DNA of 64,000 bases from Candidatus Omnitrophota bacterium. Its GTDB lineage: Bacteria > Omnitrophota > Gorgyraeia > Zapsychrales > Fredricksoniimonadaceae. Positions 1 through 23,592 of the stretch are shown here, in pieces (the stretch's first letter is position 1; every line of letters begins with the position of its first letter). The notes beneath the pieces were generated by a model. That model was not told the origin of the DNA, made no database searches, and saw only the letters and a list, made by a program, of their open reading frames with translations. The stretch spans positions 16,699 through 80,698 of the forward strand of contig JBAXRK010000011.1 of the NCBI GenBank assembly GCA_037131245.1, in the 5' to 3' direction. The position numbers were made by a program, and so were the translations under genes.

Positions 1-185
1 GGGTGATAATGCAAAAAATTGTAATACTCCTTATACGTGGCATGCCCGCGCTTGAGCCGGCGGTCATAAAGCGAACTGATGAGGGAATGGTCGTGGCTGT
101 TGTCAAAATAAAGGCCCGTCTCCGCGATCAGGAATTCCTGGAACAGGCGAAAATCATCCTCTGACAACTGTTCAACTTTGGTCAT
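1..185 (-). CDS. cheR: Chemotaxis methyltransferase CheR, N-terminal fragment (gene runs off the window start)
   Basis: Not in the ORF track. Minus-strand translation from ATG 185-183 gives MTKVEQLSEDDFRLFQEFLIAETGLYFDNSHDHSLISSLYDRRLKRGHATYKEYYNFLHYH..., which fits the CheR N-terminal helical domain. There is an ATGA overlap with the cheW stop (182-184). Confidence 0.6.
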   Translation of the reverse strand, partial: MTKVEQLSEDDFRLFQEFLIAETGLYFDNSHDHSLISSLYDRRLKRGHATYKEYYNFLHYH

Positions 186-667
186 GTCTTTATTCCGGAC
201 AAACGGGCCAATTCTTCACGGGTCACGATCTTTTCCAGGTCCAGCAGGGTGATCACGCTTTCGCCCACGCGCGCCAGGCCCGACACATACCGCCCCCGGT
301 CCTGTAAAGCGAAGATCTCGGGCGCCGGCTGAATCACGGCAGCCGGGATCATGAGCACTTCACTCACGCTGTCAACGATAAGGCCGATGATCATCGCGTT
401 GACCTTACAAATGATCACCCGCTCTTTCGATCCGGTGTCATTGGCCTTAAGCCCGAACCTTTTCCTTAAGGACGCCACCACCAGCACGCTTTTACGCACA
501 TAGATCACCCCTTCAATAAAATCCGGGGCATGCACCAGCGGCTTGATCTCCTGGACCTTAAGCACTTCCCTGACGCAGCCAATGGGAAAAGCCATCTTCT
601 CGCCTTGCAGGCTGAACACCAGGAACTGGCGCTCGTCTTTTTTCTCGGTCGTTATGTTTCCCATCAT
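182..667 (-). CDS. cheW: Chemotaxis coupling protein CheW
   Basis: ORF 182..739 has a single CheW-like domain (QFLVFSLQGEKMAFPIGCVREVL...GLIVDSVSEVL). I trimmed the start to the ATG pair at 667/664, 4 nt after the cheB stop. The longer ORF would overlap cheB. Confidence 0.85.
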   Translation of the reverse strand: MMGNITTEKKDERQFLVFSLQGEKMAFPIGCVREVLKVQEIKPLVHAPDFIEGVIYVRKSVLVVASLRKRFGLKANDTGSKERVIICKVNAMIIGLIVDSVSEVLMIPAAVIQPAPEIFALQDRGRYVSGLARVGESVITLLDLEKIVTREELARLSGIKT

Positions 668-671
668 AGCT

Positions 672-1739
672 TTACGCCCCCTTGCCCGCCATCTTGACGA
701 TCTCGGCTGCGATATCGCCCAACGGGCTAACGCGATCAATGCACCCCAGGTCGATCGCTTCCTTCGGCATGCCGAAGACCACGCAACTCGCCTGATCCTG
801 CGCGATGGTCCGCCCGCCGCGCGCCTTAACCTCTTTCATCCCCCGGGCGCCGTCCTTGCCCATGCCGGTCAAGATCACCGCGATAGCGCTCTCGCCGTAC
901 GCGCGGGCCACCGATTCCAACAAGCAACTGGCGGAAGGCTTATGCCCGTCGTAAAGCGGTTCGTCCGATAGCAGCAGCGTCCCCTGCGCGCTCACCCGCA
1001 TCTGCAGGTCGCAGGGCGCCAGGTAAACCACACCCGGCTCGATCGCCTCGCCCTGCTGGCCGATGCGGACATTGAACCGGCATTCTCCCCGAAGCCAATG
1101 GGCGAACTGCTCGAGAAAGCCGCTGGTAATGTGCTGAACGATCACGATGCCGTAAGGCAGGTCATGCGGCAGCGCCTTAAGAACCGTCAGGATCGCCATC
1201 GGCCCGCCGGTCGACGCCACGATGGCCAGAAGCCTCTCGGACGCTTTCAGCAGCGTGGTTCCCGTCGCCTGGTCATCCGCCATCATGGCCGCCCGGCCTT
1301 CCATCTTGGCCAGCATATGATGCACCACCTTGATACGGCTAAGCAGCTTGATGCTGTCAATGAACTTGCGGCCCAGGACCTCGTTGGTCGCGATCTCACT
1401 GATATCAATAAGATCCAACGCCCCGTAGGAAACGGCCCGGAACATGCGCTCGACCCCGTCAGATTGAACAGCGGCGGAAGCGATCAGGATGGGTGTCGGG
1501 CAATGCGCCATGATCTGCTTGGTCGCCTCGTAACCGTCCATGATCGGCATGTGGATATCCATGGTAATGATATCCGGCTTAAGGCTCATGGCGAGCTCCA
1601 CGGCCTCTTTACCGTTGTGGGCGGTCGCGACCACCTTGATGCCCGGGTCTGACCCCAGGAGGGTCGCGATGACCCGCGCGATGACCGGCGAGTCTTCAGC
1701 GATAAGGACTTTAACTATTTTCCTGACTTCCATATCCAT
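672..1739 (-). CDS. cheB: Protein-glutamate methylesterase CheB (receiver + methylesterase)
   Basis: 355 aa. N-terminal receiver (VLIAEDSPV...DIITMDIHMPIMDG) followed by the CheB catalytic domain (VASTGGP, LTGMGKDG, QDQASCVVFGMP). Confidence 0.9.
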   Translation of the reverse strand: MDMEVRKIVKVLIAEDSPVIARVIATLLGSDPGIKVVATAHNGKEAVELAMSLKPDIITMDIHMPIMDGYEATKQIMAHCPTPILIASAAVQSDGVERMFRAVSYGALDLIDISEIATNEVLGRKFIDSIKLLSRIKVVHHMLAKMEGRAAMMADDQATGTTLLKASERLLAIVASTGGPMAILTVLKALPHDLPYGIVIVQHITSGFLEQFAHWLRGECRFNVRIGQQGEAIEPGVVYLAPCDLQMRVSAQGTLLLSDEPLYDGHKPSASCLLESVARAYGESAIAVILTGMGKDGARGMKEVKARGGRTIAQDQASCVVFGMPKEAIDLGCIDRVSPLGDIAAEIVKMAGKGA

Positions 1740-1748
1740 TCGATCGCC

Positions 1749-3974
1749 CTAACCTATCAACCTTTTGATCGAATCGAGCAAGGCCGACTGATCAAAAGAT
1801 GTTTTAACGATATACGCCGATGCGCCCACATCGATGCCGTGCTTTTTGTGTTCTTCCTTGTCGAGGGCCGTCACCAGGATGAAGGGGATATCGCTATGCT
1901 CGGTGCTTTTCTTGATGCGCTCGCAAAGCTCGAAGCCGGTCATGCGCGGCATCTCGACATCGGAAACCACCAGGTCATACTTGGTGCGGGTCACACGCTC
2001 CCAACCGTCCAAACCGTCAACGGCGGTATCGACCGAATAACCGATCGACTCAATAAGATGCTTCACCAACTCGCGGGTGGAGAAAGCGTCGTCACAGACC
2101 AGGATCTTCTTGCCCGCCGCCTTACTCTTAAGGGAGGGGCCCTTGCCCGGACGCCGCGACATGGCCGCCGGGTGCCCGAGGCAACTGCTCTGCAGCAGGT
2201 CATCGACGTCGAGCACAACCACCACTTCCCCGGTCCACAGGACGGTGGCGCCGCTGACATTCTTCACTTTTCCCAAATGAGCGCCAAGACCCTTGATGAA
2301 CACTTCTTCCTCGCCGACGATCTGATCGACCACGAAACCGACCTTCTTCTCCAGGGAAGACACCACGACCACCGGCAGGCCCTTGGCTACCTTGGTTTTC
2401 TTCTCTTCCTCCTCCTGTGAAAGCGACGGCAGGGTGAGAGTCTCGCTCAGGCGCGCCAGGGGCAACGTCTGCCCGCGCACATTAACGGCCATGCGCCCTT
2501 CCATGGTCACCACATCAGCAACGCTCACGGTCAGGCTTTCGGTAATAGACGTAACGGGAATAGCGCATAAAAGGTCGCGGGCCCGCACCAGCAAGACCTG
2601 AATGATGGCAATGGTGAGCGGCAGGATCAGGGTAAAAACAGTCCCCTTGCCCGGCGTCGACTCAAGCAGGACCTTGCCCTTAAGGCCCTCAATATCCCGC
2701 CGGACAATATCGAGCCCGATCCCGCGGCCGGAAATATCGGTAATAATGGGGCTGGTGGAAAAACCGTTCATGAAGATCAGGTTGATGATCTCTTTCTCGC
2801 TCATCTTTTTAACTTCTTCTTCAGCGAGCAGGCCTTTGCGCACCACCGACTCCTTGATGCGCTCGGGGTCGATGCCCTGGCCGTCATCACTGATCTTGAT
2901 GACCACCGCGCCGGCTTCGTGATAGGCGGAAATAGTGATATTTCCCGTCGGCAACTTCCCGGCGGCTTTTCTTTTGTCGGCCGCTTCCAACCCATGGTCA
3001 ACAGCATTGCGCAGGATATGCATCAGCGGCGACTTGAGGCCCTCGAGGACTTTCTTGTCGAGCTCGGTATCGCCGCCCTCGATGACCAGGTTGATCTCCT
3101 TGCCTTTTTCCCGCGCGATATCACGCGCCATCCGGGGCAGGCCCTCGAGAATGGTCGAAATAGGGAGCATCCGCAGTTCTTTCATATTCGACTGCAGCTC
3201 ATCGATGACCGGATTAAGGTGGAACGCCTCGACCGTGAAACTTTCCCACAGGTCGGAGGAGACTTCTTTTAACTTCTGCGCCTGCGCGCTGCAGCGGCTG
3301 AGCAGCTTATGAACCTCCTCGCGCCGGTCGGCATTGTCCCTGAGCGTCTCATCGATGGTGGCCAGGATCCCCTGAAGGTCCTTGGAAAGCTGGCTCATTT
3401 TCTTGGCGCGGGAGATCTTGGCCGACGAATTCATCTTGTTGATGACCATCTCCCCGATCAGGTTAAGCAGCTTGTTCACCCGGCTGAGCGGCACGCGCAC
3501 ATATTCCCCCGCCACATCCGCGTTCTTTGCCGCCGGCTCCGACTTGACAGCCGTCTCAACAGTAGGCGCTTTAACGACGTCAACGATCGTACCCGCGGGC
3601 TGGCATTCATCCAGGTCCCGGCAAGCCCCGGTAACATCGATATCAGCTTTTTCCCCCTTGGCCACTTTTTCCAGCACCAGCTTTACCAGGTCGATGCCCT
3701 TAAAGATCCGGTCGGCCATCAGCGGCGTGAACGCCAGCTGGCGGTTACAGACCTTTTCAAAAATATTCTCGATGCGATGCGTGACATCCTGGATCTCCTT
3801 GAACCCGAACACCCGCGCGGCACCTTTAAGCGTATGCGCCACCCGGTTGAGCTCTTTGGCCAGCTCCATATTCGCCGGGGACTTCTCAAGCTCGACCAGG
3901 CCTTTTTCCAGGCTGACGACATATTCGCCGGCCTCGGCCCGGAACATCGCGATGAACTCGTCTTTCTGAGACAT
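1749..3974 (-). CDS. cheA: Chemotaxis histidine kinase CheA with fused C-terminal receiver (CheA-REC)
   Basis: 741 aa. Hpt domain with HTLKGAARVFGF, then HATPase motifs (NAVDHGLE, DDGQGID, GRGIGLD) and a CheW-like P5 domain. A canonical receiver follows (ILVCDDAFS...LVVSDVEMP...LVTA...IVKTSF). No obvious P2 domain. Confidence 0.9.
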   Translation of the reverse strand: MSQKDEFIAMFRAEAGEYVVSLEKGLVELEKSPANMELAKELNRVAHTLKGAARVFGFKEIQDVTHRIENIFEKVCNRQLAFTPLMADRIFKGIDLVKLVLEKVAKGEKADIDVTGACRDLDECQPAGTIVDVVKAPTVETAVKSEPAAKNADVAGEYVRVPLSRVNKLLNLIGEMVINKMNSSAKISRAKKMSQLSKDLQGILATIDETLRDNADRREEVHKLLSRCSAQAQKLKEVSSDLWESFTVEAFHLNPVIDELQSNMKELRMLPISTILEGLPRMARDIAREKGKEINLVIEGGDTELDKKVLEGLKSPLMHILRNAVDHGLEAADKRKAAGKLPTGNITISAYHEAGAVVIKISDDGQGIDPERIKESVVRKGLLAEEEVKKMSEKEIINLIFMNGFSTSPIITDISGRGIGLDIVRRDIEGLKGKVLLESTPGKGTVFTLILPLTIAIIQVLLVRARDLLCAIPVTSITESLTVSVADVVTMEGRMAVNVRGQTLPLARLSETLTLPSLSQEEEEKKTKVAKGLPVVVVSSLEKKVGFVVDQIVGEEEVFIKGLGAHLGKVKNVSGATVLWTGEVVVVLDVDDLLQSSCLGHPAAMSRRPGKGPSLKSKAAGKKILVCDDAFSTRELVKHLIESIGYSVDTAVDGLDGWERVTRTKYDLVVSDVEMPRMTGFELCERIKKSTEHSDIPFILVTALDKEEHKKHGIDVGASAYIVKTSFDQSALLDSIKRLIG

Positions 3975-3994: not shown

Positions 3995-5491
3995 TTATCC
4001 GAGCTTGACCTTTTCGGTGGCCGCCTTGAGCTTTTTAGCCAGCTCGCTCAGCGCCCCGGCGGATACAGCCGCCTGCTTGGTCGCTACCGCGAACTGCCGC
4101 GTTACGGTATTGATATTCTGCATCGCCTGCACCGTCTGTTCAGATGCCGAACGCTGCTGCTGGGTGGCGATCGAGATCTCTTTCGCCGACCCGGCGGTCT
4201 CCTGGATCATCTCCACCCCGCGAGCGACCCACTTGAGCGAATCCTCAATACCCATGACGGTCGCGTTAACCTCGGCCTGGATCTCCATGATCAGCTGGCG
4301 GATCTCTTCCGTTGACTCCGATGAGCGCTCGGCGAGCTTGCGCACTTCCTGCGCCACCACCGCGAACCCCTTGCCCGCCTCGCCGGCGCGCGCCGCTTCG
4401 ATCGCGGCATTTAGCGCCAGCATGTTGGTTTGGCCGGCGATCTCGTCAATTAATGTCGTAATGTTCCCGATGGACTGCGACTTTTCGCCAAGCGCCATGA
4501 TCTTCTTGGCGGTGCCGTCCACCCGGATATTGATCTCCTGCATCCCCACCATGGTCCGTTCGGCCGTCCGGGCCACATTCTCGGCGTTCTGCGCGATCAT
4601 GGACGCGGTCGCCGCCAGCTCTTTGACCGTTGTTGAGGCCTGATTGACGGCGGAAGCCTGTTCGGAAGCGCCGGCCACCTGGTCCTGGGAAGAAGCGCAC
4701 ATCTCACCCGACGATGTATTGATCTGCTCCCCCGCTTCCCGAATCTGGACAATAAGGGAAGAAAGATTATCGGCCAGACCATTGAACATCACGCCCAACC
4801 GGCCAATCTCATCACGCAGGTCAATATCCCCCTGAACGATACGACTGCTGAAATCCCCCTGGCCCAGCCGGTCGATCGTGACGCTCATCCGCTCCAAAGG
4901 CCGCATGATGAACCGGCTGAAAATATAATAGAGCGCTCCCAACACGAAAATAATAAAGATAAGCTGAATAAGGCCCATGCTGAGCAGGTCCTGGAACACC
5001 TCGCCCAGATCGGCCTGGGACAAGATGGTCATGCCGAGTGCCGCCATCGGCACCCCTTCCGAAACTCCCGTGTGGCAGGTCAGGCATTGTTTCTCGGCGA
5101 TGATCGGCGAAATAGAATGGACTGCCGCCGAATGATTAATGGTCAGTTCCTGGCTGGCTTCTTTGCCGGTCAAGAGCACCTGCTGTTCCAGGACATCCCG
5201 GGGCGAAGCTCCGGGCTTGACCCCCAATTCCTTTTCCAGCGCTTCCGACCGGATGACCCGTACTTCGTTGACCGCCTTAATGCCGCGGACCTTCCCCAGA
5301 TAATTATCCAGAACCGCCTGCTGGCCGGACAGCATCAAGCCCCCGACGGATTCCCGGATAACGCCGGCCAGGACGGACACGTCGCGCGTGGACTGACGGA
5401 CGGACGACCGGAACAAGGCAAACTGCACCCATCCCATCCCGATAAGCAGGATAACGAGCGTGGAGAGCAAGAACTTCGTTCTTATTTTCAT
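3995..5491 (-). CDS. Methyl-accepting chemotaxis protein with a periplasmic CxxCH (putative heme-c) sensor domain
   Basis: 498 aa. Order is TM, ~150-aa periplasmic domain containing CLTCH (5072..5086), TM, HAMP, then an MCP signalling domain ([30 protein letters not shown]). ATGA overlap with the upstream MCP. Confidence 0.85.
4001..4693 (-). repeat. MCP signalling-module paralogous repeat, copy 1 of 4 (693 nt)
   Basis: A 231-codon block, collinear without gaps with the blocks at 5539..6231, 10067..10759 and 12078..12770. It shares long identical nucleotide runs such as agcttgcgcacttcctgcgccaccaccgcgaa. Confidence 0.8.
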
Positions 5492-6954
5492 GCCTTTCCT
5501 CCCGCAGCACGCTCTGAGCTCCCGGCCACCTGATCATTAAGCTTGAAGCCGGCGATCGCTGTTTTTAATTTGCCTGCCAGATCGGTGAGCGCCGCGGCGG
5601 ACGCCGCCGCCTGCTTGGTCGATATCGTGAACTGCCGGGTCACCCCGTTGATGTTCTGCATGGCCTGTACCGTCTGGTCGGAGGCGGTCCGCTGCTGCTG
5701 GGTCGCGATGGATATCTCTTTGGCCGACCCCGCGGTCTCGCGGATCATCTCCATGCCGCGCGCCACCCACTTAAGCGAATCCTCGATGCCCATCACCGTC
5801 GCGTTGGTCTCGGCCTGGATCTCGGTGATCAGCTGGCGGATCTCTTCCGTCGATTCCGATGAGCGCTCAGCCAGCTTGCGCACTTCCTGAGCCACCACCG
5901 CGAAGCCCCGCCCCGCTTCACCGGCCCGCGCCGCTTCGATAGCGGCATTAAGCGCCAGCAGATTGGTCTGCGCCGCGATGCCGTCGATCAGTTTCGTGAT
6001 GTTCCCGATAGATTGCGATTTCTCGCCGAGCGCCATGATCTTCTTGGCGGTCGCGTCCACCCGGATATTGATCTCCTGCATCCCGGCCATCGTCCGCTCA
6101 GCCGTGCGCGCCACATTCTCGGCATTCTGCGCGATCTGGGACGCGGTGGCGGCCAACTCCTTGACGGTCGTAGAAGCTTCATTCACTGCCGACGCCTGCT
6201 CGGTCGCGCCCGTCACCTGATCCTGAGACGAGGCTTGGATCTGGGAGGCCGCCGCGTCGATCGCGAGCGATCCTTTTTTAACCTGCAGGACCAGCCCCGC
6301 GATCTTGCCTATAAAAACATTGAACCATTTGGCCACGTCCCCGATCTCGTCCTTGCCGCCGTCGTCCATGCGGCGCGTAAGGTCCCCTTCGCCCGCCTGT
6401 AGATTTTTGATCATCCCGGCCAAAGGCACCTTGATGATCCGGTTAACGATAAATCCGACCAGCAGGAAGATCACCAGATTGATCACGATCAGCCGGATAA
6501 TGGCCGTCTCCATCATCAGGGAGATCTTTTGATGAAGCGGGCCGTCATCGCGGTATAAAAAGATCTTCCCCAGATCCTGGTTCTTCGAACCATAAAGGAT
6601 ATTGGACTTTTTATCAGGCTCCGGCCGGGGGAATTCCTTGATCTTGACCGGCGCGCCTTTAAGGTCCTTGGCCATCCCGGCAATGATCTCGCCTTTAGGA
6701 TCCACGACCAGGACCGCCTGAACGCCTTTATCGAACAACTGCACTTCAAGCAGTTTTTCGATCTGGTAGATCGTGAAATCATACACCGCCTGTGGCAGGA
6801 GCATGGCCAGCCGCTGCATCATCGCCGTGTACCCTGCCTCGCGATCCTCAACCAGCGCCCGGCGTTCCATACTGACGTTTACCAGCTCGAAAGCGCTGAT
6901 CACCAGCGTGACCGCGGCCAAGATACTGAAAACCAGTTTTTTCTGAATTGACAT
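5488..6954 (-). CDS. Methyl-accepting chemotaxis protein (small periplasmic domain of unknown type)
   Basis: ORF 5488..6987, trimmed to ATG 6954 ([15 protein letters not shown]...) which has AAGGA 7 nt upstream. Two TM helices, HAMP and a conserved MCP signalling domain. Confidence 0.85.
5539..6231 (-). repeat. MCP signalling-module paralogous repeat, copy 2 of 4
   Basis: Same 231-codon block; see copy 1. Confidence 0.8.
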
Positions 6955-6967
6955 AACCACATCCTTG

Positions 6968-7774
6968 TTATTTCGTTGCCGGCGCATTCGCGACAGCCGG
7001 TGCCCAGTCCGCTATTTTATACCTGGCCAGGATCTCGGCCAATTTACCTGATCCCCGCAATGCCGCGATGCCATCCGCCCATACCTTCATCATCTTCTGC
7101 GTGCGTTCCCGGGAAACAGGAGAGAAAGCGATATAGATCGCCTGCTCTTCATTGACCTTGCCGGCCGGCGTGAGCGCGTCCTCAGGTAAGACCTGTTCCT
7201 TAAGCGCGTTGGCGATCACATGATCGTTCTCGACGATCACGTCCACCCGGCCGGCCAGCAGTTTCTGGATGTTGAACGCCAGGGCTTTTTCACCGGAAGA
7301 TTTTTGCACATCCGGCAGTTCGCCGATACCGATATACGCGTCGACCGGGCCTTCATCATAAGAATAGCCCTGGACAACGCCGAGCCTTCTGCCGGCCAGG
7401 GAACTGACCTGGTTGAAAACCCAGGGATCCCCCTTTTTGACAAAAAATAAATTCTGAATGGTCCCGATGGGCTGCTCCGGAAAAATGCAACGCGGACAGT
7501 CTGAATGCCCGGCGCCGACGATCGCGTCGATCTTGCCGGCCTGCACCTCTTCCACGTCGCGCGTCCAGGCGTGCGACTGATAATCGACGGTATAACCCGC
7601 CGGTTCGAATATCGCCTTAAGGACCTCAATACAATAACCCTGGCGCGCGCTCTGGGCATCCCCCGTGTAGGGCATCCAGGGATCGGCCGCGACGGTAATG
7701 GTCTCCGCCGCCGCCAGCCTCATGAGCGATAGAAAAAGCATGAACAGAACAAAAACGCCCATTGATCTTTTCAT
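6968..7774 (-). CDS. Periplasmic solute-binding protein, family 3 (SBP_bac_3-like), no cognate transporter nearby
   Basis: Signal peptide [23 protein letters not shown], then [13 protein letters not shown]...[11 protein letters not shown]...[10 protein letters not shown], typical of family-3 SBPs. Start is at 7774 (AGGA 5 nt upstream) or 7780. Confidence 0.7.
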
Positions 7775-7783
7775 GACCATCCT

Positions 7784-8896
7784 TTACTGTTGGGGAAACT
7801 TCTCCAGCGCTTTCGACCCGTCAACAACCTCTTCAATAAAATCTTTTCCCGTCAGGTCAATACCCAATGCCTGCGCCCGCAGCTTATTGGAGATGATCTT
7901 GCCGCGGGACGGCGAGATGACCGCGATATCGCCGGGGGCTTTTTTCTGATGCAGGATCATGTCCGCCATCCGGCCGGCTTCGTAGCCCTGCTTGTAGCCG
8001 GCATCATCCGCGGTGACCAACATACCTTCTTTAACGAACTGCTCCTCCGGCACGGCTTCCGGCTTTTTAATATTCGCCAGGTACCACGCGCCGACTTTAA
8101 GAGAATCCACAGAACTGCCTTCCTCATCCTTAAGGGTCGAATGGTTCACCACAAAGAACGCGTCCACCTTGCCCGCCAGCTCCTGCGCGCGGGTTTTCCA
8201 TTCCGCAAAAGAATCTGTCGCCACCCGGTCAACGAGCGTCAGCGGCACCTTGCCGCCTTCCGCGAGCAAGGCGATCGCCCCGGATTTCGCCCGGCCGGTC
8301 TCGGAATCATCCGACAGGATCGCGAAGGTCTTGACAGACGGCACCAGTTTCAACAGATTCTCCAGGCACTCTTTATAGTAGCCCGACTGATAAACACCGG
8401 TCACATTGCGCCCGGGATGCTCGAGGCTGTCCAGGTAACCATAGCGCATCGGGTAAAGATCGACGCCCCAGAACACCACCGGCGTGGGTGTGTTGACCAG
8501 CCGCGCGCCCACAAAATTGACCGCGTTGTCATCACCCAGGAAAACCAGGTCAGGCTTGAATTCCTTGACCAGATCCGTTACCGCGGCCGCGGAGGCCTTG
8601 ATCTCGTCTTTCTTGGACTTGCGCTTGGTGTCCATCCACGCCTTCTTGATGATCACGGTATCCGTCTCGATACGGTCATCTTTGGTGAACTCCTCCACCT
8701 GCTGGTCGGTGTCCAGGAACTTGAAATCTTTGAAGGCGGCGCAAAGACCCTTGTTGGTCTCCTGCGACCAGAGATATTCCCGGTGATAACTGCTCACCAC
8801 CAGGATCTTGAGCTTATCAGCCGCGGCCCGGGCAGGCAGCGCCACACCCGACACAAACACCGTCAACATCACCAGGAAACAAAAGATCTTTTTCAT
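7784..8896 (-). CDS. Periplasmic binding protein, ABC_sub_bind (PF04392-like) family, orphan
   Basis: ORF 7784..8974, trimmed to ATG 8896 (MKKIFCFLVMLTVFVSGVALPARA signal peptide, GGAGG upstream). Motifs [28 protein letters not shown] and [15 protein letters not shown] fit the PF04392 pattern. It is a paralogue of the next gene. Confidence 0.65.
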   Translation of the reverse strand: MKKIFCFLVMLTVFVSGVALPARAAADKLKILVVSSYHREYLWSQETNKGLCAAFKDFKFLDTDQQVEEFTKDDRIETDTVIIKKAWMDTKRKSKKDEIKASAAAVTDLVKEFKPDLVFLGDDNAVNFVGARLVNTPTPVVFWGVDLYPMRYGYLDSLEHPGRNVTGVYQSGYYKECLENLLKLVPSVKTFAILSDDSETGRAKSGAIALLAEGGKVPLTLVDRVATDSFAEWKTRAQELAGKVDAFFVVNHSTLKDEEGSSVDSLKVGAWYLANIKKPEAVPEEQFVKEGMLVTADDAGYKQGYEAGRMADMILHQKKAPGDIAVISPSRGKIISNKLRAQALGIDLTGKDFIEEVVDGSKALEKFPQQ

Positions 8897-8921
8897 GCGC
8901 TCCCCTCCAGTATAAGCTTCG

Positions 8922-10034
8922 TTACGGTTGCGGAAATTTCTCCAGGGCCTTCGACCCGTCAACCAACTCTTCAATGAAATCCTTACCCGTCAAGTCCAGA
9001 CCCAGGGCCTTCGCCCGCAGCTTATTGGCCATGATCGGCCCGCGGCTGGGCGTGATGACCTCGATCCCTGCCGGGCTCTTCTTCTGATGCAACACCAGGT
9101 CGGCCATTCTGCCCGCTTCATAACCCTGCTTGTAACCGGAATCATCCGCGCCGATCAGCAAGCCCTCCTGCACCAAATGCCCTTCCGCGACCGCTTCCGG
9201 TTTTTTAATGTTCGTCAGATACCAGGCACCGACCTCCAGCATGTCCACCGGCTTGCCCGCGTCATCCTTCAGCGTCCCGATATTGACGATAAAGAACGCG
9301 TCCACCTTGGCCTGAAGTTCCAGCGCGCGCGCTTTCCAATCCGTAAAGGAATTAGTGACCACCTCATCCACCAACTGCAGCGGCAACTGCCCCTGGGCGG
9401 CCTGCTTGTCGAGGGCCTTCACCTTGGCCCGGCCGGTCTCGGACTCATCCGACAAAATAGCGAAGGTCTTGATCGCGGGATAAATTTTTTTAAGGCTCTC
9501 GAGGCCTTCTTTGTAATAACCGGACTTGTAAACGCCCGTCATATTATGCCCGGGATGCTCGTAATTCTCGATATAACCGTATTTCATGGGATTTACCGCG
9601 ACGCCCCAGAAAATGACCGGCGTGGGTGTATTGATCAACTTGGCCCCCACGTAATTGACCGCGTTGTCATTGCCCAGCAAGACCAGGTCAGGCTTGAAAG
9701 CGGCGATCTCGGCCTCGACCGCCGTTGTCGCGGCGAGGATATCCTCTTTCTTCGACTTCTTTTTCGTGTCCATCCAAAGTTTCTTGATCACGGCATTCGA
9801 TGATTCCACCGCGTCATTCTTCGTAAAGTCAGCGATCTGCTGATCGTTCTCCAAGAATTTCATTTCTTTGAACGCCGCGCAAAGGCCCTTGTTAGTCTCC
9901 TGCGACCAGATATAATCACGACTGTAACTGCTCACCACCAAAAGGCGCTGTTTGGCGGTTGCCGCATGGACCGCCGTCACCACTCCCGACACGCCGAACA
10001 ATACCATAGCCATCCCGACCCTTAACAATCTCAT
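8922..10034 (-). CDS. Periplasmic binding protein, ABC_sub_bind (PF04392-like) family, orphan (tandem paralogue)
   Basis: 370 aa with a signal peptide. Collinear with 7784..8896 over its full length (e.g. [30 protein letters not shown] vs [32 protein letters not shown]). ATGA overlap with the upstream MCP stop. Confidence 0.65.
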
Positions 10035-12052
10035 ACAACTCCCTTGAGCTCTTCGCTCTCTTCTTCCAACTTGAATTCCGAGATCGCCGCCTTGAGCTCC
10101 AGCGAAAGCTCGGCCAATGCCAGCGCGGATTGCGCCGCCTCTTTGGTGGACGCCGCGAACTGACGCGTCACGTCATTAATGCTCTGCATCGCCTGCACCG
10201 TCTGATCGGAGGCCGTGCGCTGCTGTAAAGTGGCAATGGATATTTCCTTGGCCGCCCCCGCCGTGTCGCGGATGAGGTCAACGCCTTTGGCCACCCACTT
10301 GAGCGAATCCTCAATACCCATGACCGTCGAATTGGTTTCGGCCTGGATCTCCAGGATGAGCTGGCGGATCTCCTCGGTGGATTCCGACGAACGCTCGGCC
10401 AGCTTGCGCACTTCCTGCGCCACCACCGCGAAACCACGGCCCGCGTCGCCGGCGCGCGCCGCTTCGATCGCCGCGTTAAGCGCCAGCATGTTCGTCTGCC
10501 CCGCGATATCGTCGATCAACTGGGTGATATTGCCGATTGACTGCGATTTCTCCGCGAGCAGCATGATCTGCTTGGCGGTCTTGTCCACGCGCGTGCTGAC
10601 TTCCTGCATGCCCGCCATGGCCCGTTCCGCGGCCGCGGCCACATTGCCGGCATTCTGCGCGATCTGGGAGGCTGTCATCGCCAGCTCTTTGGCTGTCACC
10701 GACGCTTCATTGACCGCCGACGCCTGCGCGGCGGCGCCCGCGGACTGCGCCTGCGTCGCCTCGCTGATATGCCCCGCCGATAAATTGATCCCGAAACTGG
10801 CATTGCGGATCTGGAAGATCATCCGCCGCAAATTGCCGATCAGGTCATTATACGCGCTCGAAAGCTGACTGAGCTCGTTGTGGCCGTGATCATGAGCGAT
10901 CGATTGGGTCAGGTCGCCTTTGGCGATAACGTTGATATTCCGGGCCAGCGCCTTGAGCGGACGAGTGATCACCAGCATTACCAGGAAGCCGGCCGCCAAA
11001 GCCAGCAGGCAGACGACAAGCGACATCCATTCAATGCGTTTAAGCCCGTCCGTAAAATCGCCCTGATAAGCGCTCGCCGCGATGGTCCACTTCAGAGCCG
11101 GAAAATACGTATAGCCGGCGGCTTTCACCTGGATATCCGCCTCACCGGGATTTTTCCACGGATAGGCGATGATCGCGGCCTTACCCGGGCCCATCAGCGT
11201 GGCATTGCCGACCATCTGCTGAATAAAATGATCGCCCCGCTCATCCCTGGCTTCCCAAAGGTTCTCCCCGTCGCGCTGGCGCTGGAACGACAGGACATAT
11301 TCCCCGGTCTCGCTCAGGATAAAAACATACCCTTTTTTCCCGACGACGATCCGGGAAAGGGCATCGAACAGGGGCGCAAAGACCTCTTTCTGGTCGACGC
11401 CGACAAAAAGCGCGCCCACCACCTTGCCGTCCTTGTCCTTTAACGGTTCATAGGCGGTCATGAACTTCCGGCCCATCACCAGGGCGTCGCCGAAATAGTT
11501 CCGGCCTGTCGTGACCGCCTGATAGACCGGGGAATCCGACGGAATATAAGTATTGACCGCTCTTTCGCCTTTATCAGTCATCACATTCGTGGCGATGCGC
11601 AGCATCCCGCCCGGGATCAACTGGAACACGGTCGAAGCGCCCCCGGACATTCCCTTGACCCGGTCAACGGCTTCGTACTGAGCGGCAACCTTCTCGCCGC
11701 CGATCTTCAGCGCCGGCAGGGACACATCCCGGCGCAAGCGGGTGACCTGGTCGATCGCGGTGACCGTGGCCGTGTCGGACTCATCCACGCTCACCTCGCG
11801 CCCGGCAATCACCACGGCGTCGGCGATATGCAGGTCCGACCTTAACTTGCCGATCACCAGTTCGTAATAAGCCGAAACGCTTTCCGCCAGGATCAGGGAC
11901 TGTTTGCCCAGCCTTTCGCCGATATCGGCATTCACCTGCCCCTTGATAACGTGGTAGCTGAGGCCCGACAAGGTAATGATCGGGGCCATAACCAGCAGGA
12001 ATCCTGCCGACAGCAATTGCGTCCTGATACTGATATTCTTCAGCTTGACCAA
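10031..12052 (-). CDS. Methyl-accepting chemotaxis protein with a large Cache-type periplasmic domain
   Basis: 673 aa with a TTG start at 12052. The ~300-aa periplasmic region ([53 protein letters not shown]) looks like Cache_3-Cache_2/dCache. HAMP and an MCP signalling domain follow. Confidence 0.8.
10067..10759 (-). repeat. MCP signalling-module paralogous repeat, copy 3 of 4
   Basis: Same 231-codon block; see copy 1. Confidence 0.8.
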
Positions 12053-12056
12053 ATCC

Positions 12057-13628
12057 CTACCCCTTTTTCTCTTCGTCGAGCTTGAACCCGCCGATCGCCG
12101 TTTTCAATTTTTGCGATAGGTCGCTGAGCGCGGCAGCCGCCACCGCCGCCTGCTTGGTGGAGACCGCGAACTGCTTGGTCACCGTATTGATGTTCTGCAT
12201 CGCCTGCACCGTCTGATCGGAGGCCGTGCGCTGCTGCTGGGTGGCGATCGAAATTTCTTTCGCCGACATGGCCGTTTCGCGGATCATCTCGACCCCTTTG
12301 GCCACCCACTGGAGCGAATCCTCAATGCCCATGACCGTGGCCTTGGTCTCGGCCTGGATCTCGCCGATGAGCTGGCGGATCTCTTCCGTGGAATTCGATG
12401 AGCGCTCCGCCAGCTTGCGCACTTCCTGCGCCACCACCGCGAAACCGCGCCCGGCATCCCCCGCCCGCGCCGCTTCAATGGCGGCGTTGAGCGCCAGCAA
12501 ATTCGTTTGTTCGGCAATATCGTCAATAAGGGCGGTAATATTGCCGATCGCCTTCGACTTGTCGCCCAGCGCCATGATCTTCTTGGCGGTCGCGTCCACT
12601 TTGGCATTGACCTCCATCATCCCCTCCACCGTCCGCTCAGCCGTATGCGCCACATTCTCGGCGTTCTGCGCGATCTGGAAAGCGGTCGCCGCCAGCTCCT
12701 TGACGGTCGTGGACGCTTCGTTCACCGCGGAAGCCTGCTCGGTCGCGCCGGACGCCTGTTCATTGGTGGACGCGCTGATCTGGCGCGCGGAGGACGCTAT
12801 TTCCATCCCCGCCCAGTGGATCTGGACAATGATCCCCTTCAAGCCGCCCAGCAATTTATTGAACGCGATCGCCAGGTCACCCACCTCATCATCACTGACC
12901 ACCGGGACCGACGCATTAAGGTTCCCGGCCGAACCAGCCAGCTCATTGGTCTTGTCCACCACCGCCCGGACCGACTTCACCACACCGCCGGTCACAAGAA
13001 AGATAACGCCCAGGCCCGCGCCGAAAGCACCCAGCAGGACCAGCACGGCCGACGAATCAAGCCTCACCTGCTCGGATTCATTCTGCGCCAGCAGGATCTT
13101 GGTATTGTTCAAATTGTTAGAAATAATAACGTCAAGCGTACCGACGAGCGAACGGTCCTTGCCTTTAAGAAGCGCATCCGCCCCTTTGGCGTTCCCCTGA
13201 GGATCGGATAAATAAATTTTGATCCCCTCCTCATAATCTTTGGCCAGCTGAGCGTGCAAACCTTCGAACTTAAGCAATTGCTTCTGGTTTTCCTCGCTTC
13301 TTAATTTGTATTGACTGGCCTGAAGCTCTTCGACCGCGGCCTTTACCTTAAGGTCATACTTCTCCAGCTCCTCTTTACTGACTTTTAGCTCTTCCGGGTC
13401 CGTTCCCCGGATCAGAATATTCTTCCACGCCCGGTGTTGCGCGCTAAAATCATTCTCCAGGTCGGAAATGATCTTGACCTGTTCGAGCCGACGTTGGGCG
13501 ATGTCCTGCAAATGATCAAACATCAAATGATAAGTAAATACGATATAAACCCCGAACCCGGCCGCCAGCAGAAAAGACCCGCCGACACCCAAGCCCAATT
13601 TTCTTCCCAGCGTCATCCTCATCTTCAT
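12057..13628 (-). CDS. Methyl-accepting chemotaxis protein with a helical (4HB-like) periplasmic domain
   Basis: 523 aa. TM, ~160-aa helical periplasmic region, TM, HAMP, then an MCP signalling domain that is near-identical to the other three MCPs. Confidence 0.8.
12078..12770 (-). repeat. MCP signalling-module paralogous repeat, copy 4 of 4
   Basis: Same 231-codon block; see copy 1. Confidence 0.8.
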
Positions 13629-14140
13629 ACACTGCCCCCCTCGCGCGTCTCTCCCCCGATACGAAAGATCTTCTCGACCTTAAGGATGCCGATAAATTTG
13701 CGCCCCACATGCACCGCGCCCGTCAGGTATTCCGCTTTCTCGGGCGCGATGGTCGCCAGCGCCGGTGAAATGCCGGAAACCGGCACCTCCTGCGGTTCGG
13801 TCACTTCGTCGACCAAGAGCGCGGTTTCAAAGTTCCCGAAGCTCACCACCACCAGGCGCGAATGCTCGGTGAGTTCCTCCGGCGGCAGGCCGAACACCTT
13901 CTTGAGGTCCGTCACCGACAGGATATTGCCCCTTAAATTGAAAATGCCGGCGATATGCTCCGGGCTCGACGGCAAGTAAAAAAGCTTCTCGAAATTGACC
14001 ACCTCGCGGACCTCGGTGATCTCGACCCCGTACCATTCATTGGCCAACCGGAAAACCACCAGGTTGCGCGTATTCTCGTGGGCCTCTTTTTTGCCATAAA
14101 AATCTTCTTCGTAAAGCGTCAGATCCCGGGCTTCTTCCAT
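13625..14140 (-). CDS. cheW: Chemotaxis coupling protein CheW (second copy)
   Basis: ORF 13625..14179, trimmed to ATG 14140 ([12 protein letters not shown]...) which has AGGAGG upstream. CheW-like domain ([22 protein letters not shown]...[13 protein letters not shown]). 1-nt overlap (TGATG) with the upstream receiver gene. Confidence 0.85.
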
Positions 14141-14511
14141 CAGAACCCTCCTCCTAAAATTTGCCGCAGCGTCACACACAGATCTTCAACGTCAACGGCG
14201 ATATCCAGAAAGCCCTGCGCGCCCGTCTGAGCGATGACCCGGTCGAGGGAATCCTTGTCGAGCGATGAAATGTAGTACACCGGTGTTTTGGCGGTGCGGG
14301 GATCGGCTTTCACCGTCCGGCAGATCACGTCCCCGTTGACATCCGGCAGATTATAATCAAGCAGCAGGATATTGTAGTCACCGGTAGCCGCTTTGGTGAT
14401 GCCCTCTTGCCCGGTCTCGACGGTATCAACGCTGAAACCGCCGGCCTCCAGGCCGCGCTTAAGCATTTTATTGATGATCGGCGTATCGTTAACGATCAGG
14501 ATCCTGTTCAC
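14140..14511 (-). CDS. Single-domain response-regulator receiver (CheY-like, atypical)
   Basis: 123 aa with a GTG start (GTGA overlap with the HK-like stop). The phospho-acceptor context LLLDYNLPDVNG is present. The acidic pair reads ND and the position of the conserved Lys reads Ile (GFLDIAV), by eye alignment to CheY. Confidence 0.75.
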   Translation of the reverse strand: MNRILIVNDTPIINKMLKRGLEAGGFSVDTVETGQEGITKAATGDYNILLLDYNLPDVNGDVICRTVKADPRTAKTPVYYISSLDKDSLDRVIAQTGAQGFLDIAVDVEDLCVTLRQILGGGF

Positions 14512-15257
14512 GCGGCTACCTCCTTAATGACGGCCGGGAAGATCGCTTTGAACGAACTGCCCGCTTCAGCCGTATTCTGCAACTCCAGCCGCCCATTCTG
14601 GGCTTCGATCACTTTCTGGCAAGCCGTCAGGCGGAAGCTTTCCCCCGCGCCCGGCACATTGGCCGTGATCTCCAAAATGGACTCCCGGCCTTCGGCACCG
14701 GCGTAGGTCTTAAGGATGATCTGCTTCGGCCCTTTTTCCAGGCGCTCCACGATACGGCGGGCCTGGTCGAGCAGGCTGAGGACCGTCTGTTCGAGACGAA
14801 TCCCGTCGGCCATAATAAAAGGAAGGCCGGCCGCGAAATCCTCCTTGAGCTCGATCTTGTGATTTTTATACTGCTGGCCCACAAATTGCAAGGCGCTTTG
14901 TACGATCGCGTTAAGGTCCTCGCGCTCCAGGGGAGCTCCCTGCTTAGGTCGGGAGAGCACGCGCATGTGGTTGATGACCTCCGAGAGCTTGTTCATCTGG
15001 GTGACGATCTCGGGCAGGTCTTTCGCCGCGTCCTCGGCGTTGAAGCGGCCTTTCTTGATATCATGCAGGATCCCCTGGCAGATGATCTTGGTAACGTTAA
15101 GCGGCTGATTAAGCTCATGGGCGATGGCCGACGTCATTTCCGCCAGCAGGGCCATGTTCTCAAGTTCAATAAGCCGGTCGGTCACCCGGATAAGATCGGC
15201 CCTTGTCCTGGCCAGCGCGGCACTGACTTCTTGCAATGAAATATCACCGGATGCCAT
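14508..15257 (-). CDS. Sensor-less histidine-kinase-like protein (HisKA intact, ATP-binding motifs degenerate)
   Basis: 249 aa with no TM or sensor domain. The H-box AIAHELNQPL is intact. The N-box position reads SLLDQA, the G1 position reads TANVPGAG, and no GxGLGL G2 box is visible. Confidence 0.7.
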   Translation of the reverse strand: MASGDISLQEVSAALARTRADLIRVTDRLIELENMALLAEMTSAIAHELNQPLNVTKIICQGILHDIKKGRFNAEDAAKDLPEIVTQMNKLSEVINHMRVLSRPKQGAPLEREDLNAIVQSALQFVGQQYKNHKIELKEDFAAGLPFIMADGIRLEQTVLSLLDQARRIVERLEKGPKQIILKTYAGAEGRESILEITANVPGAGESFRLTACQKVIEAQNGRLELQNTAEAGSSFKAIFPAVIKEVAA

Positions 15258-15465: not shown

Positions 15466-15500
15466 AAAAAAAAGGGGGGCAGGATGGCCCACCCCCTGCT
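15466..15500 (-). terminator. Putative intrinsic terminator after the peroxiredoxin gene
   Basis: The minus strand just after the stop (15504) reads AGCAGGGGGTGGGCCATCCTGCCCCCCTTTTTTTT. This is a GC-rich stem (GCAGG/CCTGC or G5/C5) followed by T8. Confidence 0.55.
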
Positions 15501-21875: not shown

Positions 21876-22673
21876 TTACGGGCTGCGGACGCAACGCACG
21901 CTGTAGGTGTGGTTCTTGCCGTTACTAACCTGGGCGCCATTACTGAAGAACTGGATCCAGGCGTTAACATTACCATTGAAATCCGTCGACGACCAAAAAC
22001 CAGAGCCAGACCCAATTCCCAATGCGACCCGATTTACATACAAGACAGAATTTAGTTCACTCTTTGAAGGCAAATGCCAGTCGGCACCCTTGGCAGCACA
22101 AGTAGCTGCGGCCGTGGCCCAGTTCATTGTACCCTCATCAGCAGGCGTCGTCCGGTACCCCGGGCCGGCGTAGAGCGTTCCGTCACTACATACGGTTCCT
22201 ATAGCCGGTGACAGGTCACAAGGATCGGGAACGATCAGGCTGGCGCAAGTACCGATATTCTTGGCGCAAGCACCCGCTGTTGTTTCAACGCACACCGGGT
22301 CTGCGGCGCTCCCATCCAGAAGCACGCACGCCTTAAACGAATTGTCGTCTGCCGTCGCCAGGCACTCCACCCCGTCACAGCCGTACACCGCCCCCTGCGG
22401 CACAATAGAGAGCGTCCGCGTCCCATTAATGCTGTTTATTTCGCTTGTCGTGCACGCGGTGCTCACCGCGCAGGCAAAAGCCGGGTTACCATTCACCACC
22501 CGGAGCCGGTTGGCATCCCTGATGATCGTCAGATTGGCGATCGCGTCCCTGGACCTTGAACGCTGGATCGATTTATTAAATGAGGGAATGCCAAAACTCG
22601 CGATCAGGCCGATGATCACCATGACCACGACCAGTTCCACCATCGTAAATGCCGAGCAATACTTCTTGATCAT
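21876..22673 (-). CDS. Prepilin-type N-terminal methylation-motif protein with a C-terminal DUF1566 (Lcl-C/C-type-lectin-fold-like) domain
   Basis: 265 aa. N-terminus MIKKYCSAFTMVELVVVMVIIGLIA is a class III signal-like sequence with Ala at -1. C-terminus is GTVCSDGTLYAGPGYRTT...WHLPSKSELNSV...FWSST...VRCVRSP. Confidence 0.7.
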   Translation of the reverse strand: MIKKYCSAFTMVELVVVMVIIGLIASFGIPSFNKSIQRSRSRDAIANLTIIRDANRLRVVNGNPAFACAVSTACTTSEINSINGTRTLSIVPQGAVYGCDGVECLATADDNSFKACVLLDGSAADPVCVETTAGACAKNIGTCASLIVPDPCDLSPAIGTVCSDGTLYAGPGYRTTPADEGTMNWATAAATCAAKGADWHLPSKSELNSVLYVNRVALGIGSGSGFWSSTDFNGNVNAWIQFFSNGAQVSNGKNHTYSVRCVRSP

Positions 22674-22695
22674 AAATAGTGTGTACGCATATTAT

Positions 22696-23592
22696 TTAAG
22701 GGCTGCGGACGCAACGGACAGTGAAAAGGTATGCCTTAGTGGTAACGATGTTGTGGTTGCCATCATAGGAAATCAGGAAAAAGGCCTTTGTATTATCATT
22801 ATTGAACTCTGTCGACGACGCATACCAACGGTACTGAAATCCCCCAATTGAGTGCGCAGGCGGAGGATCAGGACATACCATACCGTTAAAATCAAAATTT
22901 GCGCAATACGTGTTGCTATGCACCCAAAGCACATCGTAAAGCTCACTCACCGTTGGCAAACGCCACCCTGCGCCCTTGTTTAAACAGAATTGCTTGGCTG
23001 CTGCCCAATCCATCACCCCTTCATCCGCTGCCGTTGTCCTGTAGCCGGGGCCCGCATAGACGGTTCCATCATCACAAACCGTTCCATAATCCGGTGTTCC
23101 ATCGCAGGGATCGGAAGGCGCCGGAGCGCTTGCCGCGGCAGCGCCGAAGGAGCCATTGGTCACCGCGGTATCGTCGCCGCTGACCGTTACCGTGCCTTCA
23201 GATGTGATCGTCATGGATCCGCTGATCCCATCCACTCCGACCGTGCCGATCGAATAGAACCTCCCGCTTTTGGTATAAAGATAATCACTGCCACTGAAAG
23301 GGTCCAGCAACGGCGCATCGATCATCGGCGGAGTCGCGCCAACAAGGTCCGTACTAATATTGGAAGGCAAAGCATTGGAATGGAATGTGCGATAAGACTC
23401 TACCGCCGCCTGAAGGGTTTTGAGCTCCCGCTGGGCTTTGGTGATATTCATCTGCGCCATCAACCCCTTGATCCGCGGGATCGAAATGCCGATCAACACG
23501 GCCACGACCACAACAACCATCATGATCTCAAGGATCGTGAACCCCCGCGACCTCAATCTAAACCCGTTTTTTGAGAAGATAGTCCGCATCAT
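22696..23592 (-). CDS. GspG-like pseudopilin with a C-terminal DUF1566 (Lcl-C-like) domain
   Basis: 298 aa. Canonical prepilin motif SRG/FTILEIMMVVVVVAVLIG, then a GspG-like body (LLDPF...SGDDTAVTNG). C-terminus is GTVCDDGTVYAGPGYRTT...WRLPTVSELYDV...YASST...VRCVRSP. Confidence 0.75.
   Translation of the reverse strand: MMRTIFSKNGFRLRSRGFTILEIMMVVVVVAVLIGISIPRIKGLMAQMNITKAQRELKTLQAAVESYRTFHSNALPSNISTDLVGATPPMIDAPLLDPFSGSDYLYTKSGRFYSIGTVGVDGISGSMTITSEGTVTVSGDDTAVTNGSFGAAAASAPAPSDPCDGTPDYGTVCDDGTVYAGPGYRTTAADEGVMDWAAAKQFCLNKGAGWRLPTVSELYDVLWVHSNTYCANFDFNGMVCPDPPPAHSIGGFQYRWYASSTEFNNDNTKAFFLISYDGNHNIVTTKAYLFTVRCVRSP

Follow-up and report, generated by a model that had tools for sequence, protein, structure and literature searches.

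A chemotaxis (che) operon of a Candidatus Omnitrophota bacterium contains three genes for periplasmic solute-binding proteins (SBPs) that are sandwiched by two pairs of genes for methyl-accepting chemotaxis proteins (MCPs). The operon is located on contig JBAXRK010000011.1, positions 16,699 to 80,698; the window below means this whole stretch of 64,000 nucleotides (nt), and all window coordinates are counted from its first letter. Two of the three proteins, SBP-A and SBP-B, are paralogs from the PF04392 (ABC_sub_bind) family, and the third, SBP3, belongs to the SBP_bac_3 (PF00497) family. The most probable function of these proteins, to which we assign a probability of about 0.65, is that of dedicated co-receptors: they would bind their ligands, dock on an MCP encoded in the same operon, most likely on the small-domain MCP as a shared platform, and modulate CheA-REC, the operon's CheA with a fused receiver domain. 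An earlier note on the same DNA had proposed that the three SBPs serve purely as ligand adaptors for the neighboring MCPs. Comparative data support the adaptor part of this proposal, while "purely" goes beyond what a view of 64 kb can prove.

The following mechanism may be suggested. The SBP genes would be co-transcribed with those for four paralogous MCPs, CheA-REC, CheB, and two CheW proteins, and Sec signal peptides would take the three SBPs to the periplasm. A small ligand would be held in the inter-lobe cleft of each SBP, and each SBP would then dock on one of the operon's MCPs, at its periplasmic sensor, and shift the activity of CheA. The docking receptor would most likely be the small-domain MCP (5488..6954), shared by both SBP classes in the way that Trg accepts both RBP and GBP, with adaptation provided by CheB and CheR. 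The PF04392 pair would derive from a phylum-spanning two-gene cassette, in which an SBP gene is followed by the gene for a receptor with a dCache-like sensor of ~280 amino acids (aa); one Omnitrophota lineage would have moved the PF04392 SBP into its che operon and duplicated the SBP gene.

Organization of the operon and its three binding proteins

The che operon consists of 13 tightly packed genes on the minus strand. These genes and the hairpin preceding them are as follows, in the direction of transcription.

15475..15496, minus strand: terminator-like hairpin that belongs to the preceding peroxiredoxin-like gene (9-pair stem with 7 GC pairs, then a T run)
14508..15257, minus strand: small soluble HisKA-type kinase-like protein, which opens the operon (Pfam HisKA only)
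14140..14511, minus strand: single-domain response regulator (Pfam Response_reg)
13625..14179, minus strand: first CheW (Pfam CheW, 4.7e-33)
12057..13628, minus strand: MCP with a 4HB-like sensor (Pfam MCPsignal and HAMP; weak 4HB_MCP_1 match)
10031..12052, minus strand: Cache_3-Cache_2 MCP, or Cache MCP (Pfam Cache_3-Cache_2, 1e-69; HAMP; MCPsignal)
8922..10034, minus strand: SBP-A, PF04392 (ABC_sub_bind), 370 aa (Pfam 51.2 bits)
7784..8896, minus strand: SBP-B, PF04392 paralog of SBP-A, 370 aa (Pfam 64.1 bits)
6968..7780, minus strand: SBP3, SBP_bac_3 (PF00497), 270 aa (Pfam 37.8 bits)
5488..6954, minus strand: small-domain MCP (Pfam HAMP and MCPsignal only; no annotated sensor)
3995..5491, minus strand: MCP with a periplasmic c-type-heme sensor, CXXCH (Pfam Mcp40H-20_sensor)
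1749..3974, minus strand: CheA fused to a C-terminal receiver (from the translation; orthologs in the related loci L001 and L088 have Hpt, HATPase_c, CheW, and Response_reg)
672..1739, minus strand: CheB methylesterase (from the translation; orthologs have Response_reg and CheB_methylest)
182..667, minus strand: second CheW, start likely MMGNITT (from the translation; in relatives, a 161-aa CheW is followed by CheR-TPR)

The genes of the Cache MCP and SBP-A are joined by a stop/start ATGA overlap at 10031..10034, and the remaining junctions of the SBP block measure 25, 3, and 13 nt, the last being the spacer between SBP3 and the small-domain MCP. In the case of SBP-B, the ATG at 8896 lies behind a strong ribosome-binding site (GGAGGGGAG), and therefore the 396-aa open reading frame (ORF) starting from TTG is too long. 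For the small-domain MCP, the start codon is the ATG at 6954, and its ribosome-binding site is AAGGA. No strong terminator was detected inside the operon, and the hairpin at 15475..15496 marks its upstream edge. The pair of the HisKA protein and the single-domain response regulator heads all related clusters; the HisKA ortholog in L088 also has HATPase_c.

The arrangement described in the earlier note, that is, one family-3 SBP and two PF04392 duplicates in the middle of the operon, two MCPs on each flank, and the ATGA overlap, is thus confirmed. All three SBPs score above the Pfam gathering cut-offs (25.9 bits for ABC_sub_bind and 26.4 bits for SBP_bac_3), and SBP-A shares 64% identity with SBP-B over 369 aa. 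Sequences resembling the signal peptides that the note ascribed to all three proteins were found as well: the N-termini, as read from the translations, have n-h-c regions and AxA-type sites (VHA/A, ARA/A, and AAA/E), pointing to export. In the AlphaFold2 (AF2) model of SBP-A, a low-confidence N-terminal helix precedes the folded domain. Chance adjacency and miscalled ORFs are ruled out by the Pfam scores, by orthologs with 50-76% identity, and by conserved synteny; the arrangement cannot be accidental, because it is conserved in four independent related lineages.

An Omnitrophota metagenome-assembled genome (MAG) encodes a protein 100% identical to SBP-A. The AF2 model of SBP-A, with a predicted local distance difference test score (pLDDT) of 92, has the two-lobe type I periplasmic-binding-protein fold. 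The closest structures found by Foldseek are CD0873 (6HNJ), 3LFT, and 3LKV, with E-values from 1e-18 to 2e-16 and target-normalized TM-scores of 0.80-0.84; TorT, LuxP, and XylFII, the SBPs dedicated to sensor kinases, are lower entries in the same list. Both SBP-A and SBP-B keep all 41 positions, many of them aromatic, that are invariant among 39 aligned members of the PF04392 subfamily described below. The invariance of these positions across phyla suggests one conserved ligand. A recent tandem duplication as the origin of the pair was considered and rejected, given the moderate identity of the two proteins and the position of the closest relative of SBP-A, which comes from another lineage in a rough neighbor-joining tree.

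The orthologs of SBP3 are 44-58% identical to it and all come from che clusters of the same kind. Among more distant relatives (36-42%), one is encoded beside a HAMP-PAS-GGDEF-EAL receptor and another beside a hybrid kinase among signaling genes, and no ABC (ATP-binding cassette) genes were found beside the distant relatives examined. The best sequence match of SBP3 in PDB is a binding-protein-like sensor domain of a kinase, 3H7M. In the phmmer alignment of SBP3 with the arginine-binding protein 3TQL, the Arg (sdcpRc) and Asp (ivenD) residues of SBP3 align with R and D of the target. In the HisJ/LAO-type proteins, these positions presumably hold the carboxylate and amino groups of the ligand. 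An amino-acid-like ligand is possible for SBP3.

The PF04392 subfamily in other genomes

Homologs of the window PF04392 proteins with 46-76% identity were found in Omnitrophota, Planctomycetota, Elusimicrobia, Desulfobacterota, Magnetococcales, Burkholderiales, and other lineages, with Gammaproteobacteria, Acidobacteriota, and Latescibacterota in the same range. Proteins are ascribed here to the subfamily if their identity exceeds 45% and no invariant residue is missing, as is the case for both window proteins.

The members of this subfamily are linked to receptors. In 80 species genomes, 69 of the 78 evaluable subfamily genes, that is, SBP copies with enough downstream sequence, are followed at a distance of at most 600 nt and on the same strand by a gene for a protein with a conserved periplasmic domain of ~280 aa; the count comes from a six-frame profile analysis, in which the profile was derived from the very downstream proteins that it later served to count. 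This partner domain is flanked by two transmembrane segments and is weakly similar to dCache_1, below the Pfam threshold. The gaps between the SBP and receptor genes are typically ~0-35 nt, and some genes overlap. Pfam analysis of 57 immediately downstream genes identified mostly signaling domains (HAMP in 42, HisKA in 37, HATPase_c in 33, Response_reg in 23, CHASE and GGDEF in 8 each, EAL in 5, and MCPsignal in 2) and no transporter domain in any of the 57. In the annotated contexts, the SBP gene is directly upstream of the gene for a large CHASE-PAS-HisKA or HAMP-PAS-HisKA receptor. The two MCP cases come from a Planctomycetia MAG, with the gene order CheB ... CheA-CheW-SBP-MCP, and from an Acidobacteriota MAG.

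The gene immediately upstream was analyzed in 45 loci and encodes SBP_bac_1 in 17 and SBP_bac_8 in 6 of them (the counts may overlap); the loci with an upstream SBP include L005, L006, L031, L040, L042, and L065. These upstream genes matched 40 families, and the 25 of them that were listed include neither ABC_tran nor BPD_transp. Since the upstream gene is often another SBP, cassettes of several SBPs plus a receptor are normal for the subfamily, and many of its receptors appear, judging by gene order, to be served by two unrelated SBPs. Further SBP classes occur after the PF04392 gene: a lipobox protein weakly similar to NMT1 in L001 (11218..12261; 20.3 bits at a cut-off of 20.5) and a PstS-like PBP_like_2 protein in the Magnetococcales locus L059 (11154..12179).

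Of the nine exceptions to the rule of a downstream partner domain, some belong to the che clade of Omnitrophota. In a rough neighbor-joining tree, the PF04392 proteins embedded in che clusters form one Omnitrophota clade, sister to Omnitrophota copies coupled to CHASE kinases. This placement fits a single capture by a che operon followed by an old duplication. Our search of the literature on PF04392/ABC_sub_bind in signaling and on SBP genes inside bacterial che clusters yielded nothing specific.

Docking partner, alternative readings, and output

The four MCPs of the operon have similar HAMP and signaling modules (60-74% identity at the protein level and 79-83% at the DNA level) and unrelated sensor domains. 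By sequence, they look like a paralogous set produced via swapping of sensor domains. The four sensors show no homology to the partner domain that is canonical for the PF04392 subfamily (hmmsearch E-values of at least 0.16; hhalign probability below 1%), and therefore the gene neighborhood in related Omnitrophota che clusters is the best guide to the docking partner. The gene orders are as follows.

Window: MCP-4HB, MCP-Cache, PF04392, PF04392, SBP3, small MCP, heme MCP
L092 and L009 (one lineage, with an identical protein in both; the MCP tail is from L092 only and the heme MCP from L009 only): MCP tail, PF04392, PF04392, SBP3b, SBP3, small MCP, heme MCP
L001: ... SBP3', MCP, small MCP, PF04392, NMT1-like SBP, MCP, CheA
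L017: PF04392, small MCP (4-nt gap), convergent with the remaining cluster
L088: MCP-4HB, Cache fragment, MCP, OprB-like porin, SBP3, small MCP, dCache_3 MCP, CheA; no PF04392
Locus with a 478-aa MCP: MCP-4HB, SBP3, 478-aa MCP, heme MCP, CheA; no PF04392

Throughout the related che clusters, the gene of the small-domain MCP adjoins an SBP gene or a block of SBP genes, be it SBP_bac_3, PF04392, or both. SBP3 is directly followed by the small MCP in the window, in L009/L092, in L088, and probably in the locus with the 478-aa MCP, and a PF04392 gene abuts the small MCP in L001 and L017. Hence the adjacency of SBP and MCP genes, for which the earlier note had suggested a survey of related genomes, is indeed conserved. 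The note had named two possible partners, the small-domain MCP and the Cache MCP. The former is supported as the likeliest docking partner, because its adjacency to SBP genes is conserved; the latter is not, because neither the Cache MCP nor its ATGA coupling is. Under the most economical scenario suggested by these gene orders, SBP3 would have been paired with the small MCP in the ancestral che cluster; addition of the PF04392 genes would have followed, and the Cache MCP would have joined in the window lineage only. In L088, the OprB-like porin gene (5716..6954), located directly upstream of the SBP3/small-MCP pair, hints that entry through the outer membrane may be coupled to the sensor.

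The small-domain MCP has transmembrane segments at residues 7-25 and 152-170 with a periplasmic part of ~126 aa between them, followed by HAMP and the MCP signaling domain. Its sensor, modeled by AF2 with 24 distant homologs at pLDDT above 90, begins with a long helix at the N-terminus, followed by a short helix and five strands; a C-terminal helix then continues into the second transmembrane segment. From the secondary-structure string of this model we infer a minimal PAS/PDC-type fold without the usual helices between strands 2 and 3. When the full-length model was searched against PDB folds, the cytoplasmic coiled coil dominated, and the sole match of a sensor type was the protein-binding LapD-type periplasmic domain 4U64, with a weak E-value of 0.011. 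The sensor (residues 1-170) is rare: 47 representatives, most of ~500 aa, were found at E-values up to 1e-3 among 1.84 billion proteins, and the ten homologs examined comprise eight MCPs and two kinases. No Pfam Cache model matches it, and a word-index homolog search with the sensor and two metagenome scans for it or a relative gave no match. The idea that it is a truncated version of the canonical partner domain is unsupported, as both hmmsearch and hhalign were negative.

Another possibility is that the PF04392 pair signals through the Cache MCP (10031..12052) and only SBP3 uses the small-domain MCP. The ATGA overlap joins the Cache MCP with SBP-A; the layout of the canonical partner, a dCache-like domain of ~280 aa between two transmembrane segments, and its size class are those of the 310-aa sensor of the Cache MCP; and the block of the Cache MCP and the two PF04392 genes gives the impression of having been inserted into a core cluster of MCP-4HB, SBP3, and small MCP. 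However, this sensor shows neither sequence nor profile similarity to the canonical partner domain, and it has no full ortholog in any related locus, the only trace being a 160-aa fragment in L088, whereas orthologs of the 4HB-like MCP are present in L001, L017, and L088. The PF04392 genes that abut an MCP gene in L001 and L017 abut that of the small MCP, not of a Cache MCP, and in the canonical cassettes the SBP gene precedes its receptor and does not follow it. In the closest relative, L092, whose SBP is 76% identical, the tail of the upstream MCP is of the 4HB/small-MCP type, and a spacer of ~95 nt (L092 70..165) with two GC-rich hairpin-forming stretches (GGGGCCGGCCCC and GGGCGGCC..GGCCGCCC) separates it from the first PF04392 gene. 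Because of this spacer at the equivalent point, the ATGA coupling is specific to the window. Taken together, these observations make signaling of the pair through the Cache MCP rather unlikely.

Several points weigh against the co-receptor function with the small-domain MCP as the shared platform. As the sensor of this MCP lacks detectable homology to the canonical partner domain, the PF04392 proteins would need a newly acquired docking partner. In the window, it is the Cache MCP, with a double-Cache sensor similar in size and type to the canonical partner, that is translationally coupled to SBP-A. The number of supporting loci is small, all come from MAGs, and not all are independent. Each adjacency is backed by only four independent lineages; L017 is possibly rearranged or chimeric. 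One distant SBP3 relative is encoded beside an unrelated membrane protein and has no receptor neighbor. The view covers 64 kb of the genome, and a cognate ABC transporter encoded elsewhere is possible. Finally, all support for the docking of the SBPs on an MCP is comparative.

A broader scenario, possible but tentative, embeds the co-receptor function in the evolution of the whole subfamily. The PF04392 subfamily and the cognate dCache-like domain of ~280 aa might constitute an undescribed two-protein cassette that is spread over at least 10 phyla, recognizes one conserved signal, and feeds kinase, cyclic di-GMP, or chemotaxis outputs. In one Omnitrophota lineage, a che operon might have captured the SBP, which might then have been duplicated and re-targeted to a minimal PAS-like MCP sensor. 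This sensor might no longer bind small molecules itself and might provide a general platform on which two unrelated SBP classes dock.

The three SBPs could also be dual-function transport proteins, similar to MBP and RBP of E. coli, with the permease and ATPase encoded elsewhere in the genome and the location in the che operon providing only co-regulation. The Pfam families of all three are named for ABC transport, the solved PF04392 relatives 3LFT and CD0873 bind amino acids and are described by depositors and sources as components of ABC-type transport (PMC10443332), and the inspection covered 64 kb of the genome. Yet the arrangement expected of PF04392 in ABC importers, with permease and ATPase genes alongside, was observed neither in the window nor in the neighboring genes elsewhere. 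No ORF of the window combines Walker A and LSGGQ motifs, and none of its 455 six-frame segments was matched at E-values up to 0.01 in phmmer searches with eight genuine ABC ATPases from other loci; those window proteins that came into question as membrane components or NTPases belong to other families, such as Nramp, MgtE-N/CBS, an Era-like GTPase, and AAA_14. Thus, of the statement in the earlier note that the window has neither ABC permease nor ATPase genes, the ATPase part holds, whereas permeases were not searched exhaustively. Elsewhere, a few ABC-ATPase-like ORFs lie in the 10-kb flanks of subfamily members, none adjacent to the SBP gene, and the 57 downstream and 45 upstream neighbors from many phyla are receptors or further SBPs, with no ABC component adjacent to the SBP gene. 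Hence the cognate ABC genes, the finding of which the note had named as a refutation, were found neither in the window nor, in other genomes, at the positions directly flanking subfamily members. The window PF04392 proteins also differ from the transport-type structures, with 16-20% identity and ~50 extra residues. Dual-function transport proteins are therefore an improbable explanation.

It is highly improbable that the SBPs are periplasmic modulators, like LapG on LapD, either bound to the MCP sensor at all times or signaling the state of the envelope or of a macromolecule: the model of the small-MCP sensor lacks the helices that usually close the PDC ligand pocket, its only sensor-type match is the LapD-type domain mentioned above, and LuxP and TorT remain bound to their kinases without ligand (PMC8050422), but the SBPs keep the complete two-lobe binding-protein fold, the 41 cross-phyla invariant residues would fit a conserved small ligand if located in the cleft, and the Arg and Asp of SBP3 align with amino-acid-contacting residues of the arginine-binding protein.

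The sensor of the heme MCP (3995..5491) matches the heme-c PAS-like domains of Geobacter MCPs, PDB 3B47 and 3B42. A sensor of a redox or gas type, with a CXXCH motif, thus shares the array with the SBP-linked MCPs. With a receiver fused to CheA and, in relatives, TPR fused to CheR, the output of the pathway may be flagellar steering or another process. No flagellar genes were noticed in the window, linkage to flagellar genes not itself being tested. Several ORFs at 21876..23592 and 40429..41652 start with N-terminal motifs of the prepilin type, such as FTMVELVVVMVIIG and GLTILEIIVVIVVIG, which suggests that candidate pseudopilin or type IV pilin genes are located near the che operon.

Comparison with known systems

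To our knowledge, the bacterial SBPs known to serve chemoreceptors have all been borrowed from transporters. The studied locus is a bacterial case in which the che operon itself carries hard-wired SBP genes, and it draws attention to an entire PF04392 subfamily dedicated to receptors in many phyla and whose conserved residues suggest a specific signal. It offers concrete, clonable SBP/sensor pairs for ligand screens, and its small rare sensor, for which there is no Pfam model, may specialize in docking binding proteins. Activation of receptors by SBPs is thought to be widespread, with few systems characterized so far (PMC8050422). As the mechanism itself is not new, the main value of the data is in annotation and ligand discovery.

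Within PF04392, the proteins with known structures and ligands are 3LFT from S. pneumoniae (L-Trp), CD0873 from C. difficile (Tyr), and 3LKV from V. cholerae (Phe) (PMC10443332). They share the Pfam family and the type I fold with the window pair and are its best structural matches. At the same time, the sequence matches of SBP-A to the transport-type proteins span only residues ~102-353 of 370. The extra residues of the subfamily include a helix and strands at 64-87 as well as a conserved C-terminal tail, and its genes are linked to receptors and not, as those of the transport type, to transporters.

In the E. coli systems MBP-Tar, RBP/GBP-Trg, DppA-Tap, and LsrB-Tsr, a ligand-loaded SBP docks on an MCP, as suggested here, and Trg accepts several SBPs. 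The difference is that these SBPs also feed ABC transporters and are encoded together with transporter genes (PMC8050422), and that the sensors are four-helix bundles. Closer in gene order to the PF04392 cassette are LuxP-LuxQ, TorT-TorS, XylFII-LytS, and NspS-MbaA, in which the SBP gene neighbors that of the receptor instead of belonging to a transporter cluster. Their receptors mostly have dCache-like sensors, with TorS being HBM-like and LytS TarH-like, and their SBPs come from other families, Peripla_BP_1, Peripla_BP_4, and SBP_bac_8; PF04392 is absent from a review table of signaling SBPs (PMC8050422). Recognition of SBPs by a single Cache/PAS-like periplasmic domain, similar to that proposed for the small-domain MCP, has been described for AibA/AibB-TlpB in Helicobacter pylori and for AioX-AioS (PMC8050422). 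In contrast to the case considered here, the genes of AibA and AibB accompany transporter genes, AioS is a kinase, and the small-MCP sensor matches no Pfam Cache model.

The closest precedent comes from Archaea. In Halobacterium salinarum, basB and cosB are located directly upstream of basT and cosT, respectively, and these SBPs are reported to function in detection only, with no role in transport (PMC8050422, PMC7289035). As in the window, the gene for an SBP from an ABC-type family is directly beside an MCP gene in BasB-BasT and CosB-CosT. Hence the statement of the earlier note that hard-wiring of transporter-independent SBPs is unusual was too strong, and the principle of SBP-mediated chemoreception is already established. 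BasB and CosB are archaeal lipid-anchored proteins of the Peripla_BP_6/OpuAC families, with one SBP per MCP and dCache-like sensors, whereas the Omnitrophota system is bacterial, with soluble PF04392 and SBP_bac_3 proteins, three SBPs per che operon, and a minimal single PAS-like sensor as the likely partner. What is new in the system described here is PF04392 as an SBP family in this role, a bacterial che operon with three SBPs from two families, and a minimal sensor as their conserved neighbor.

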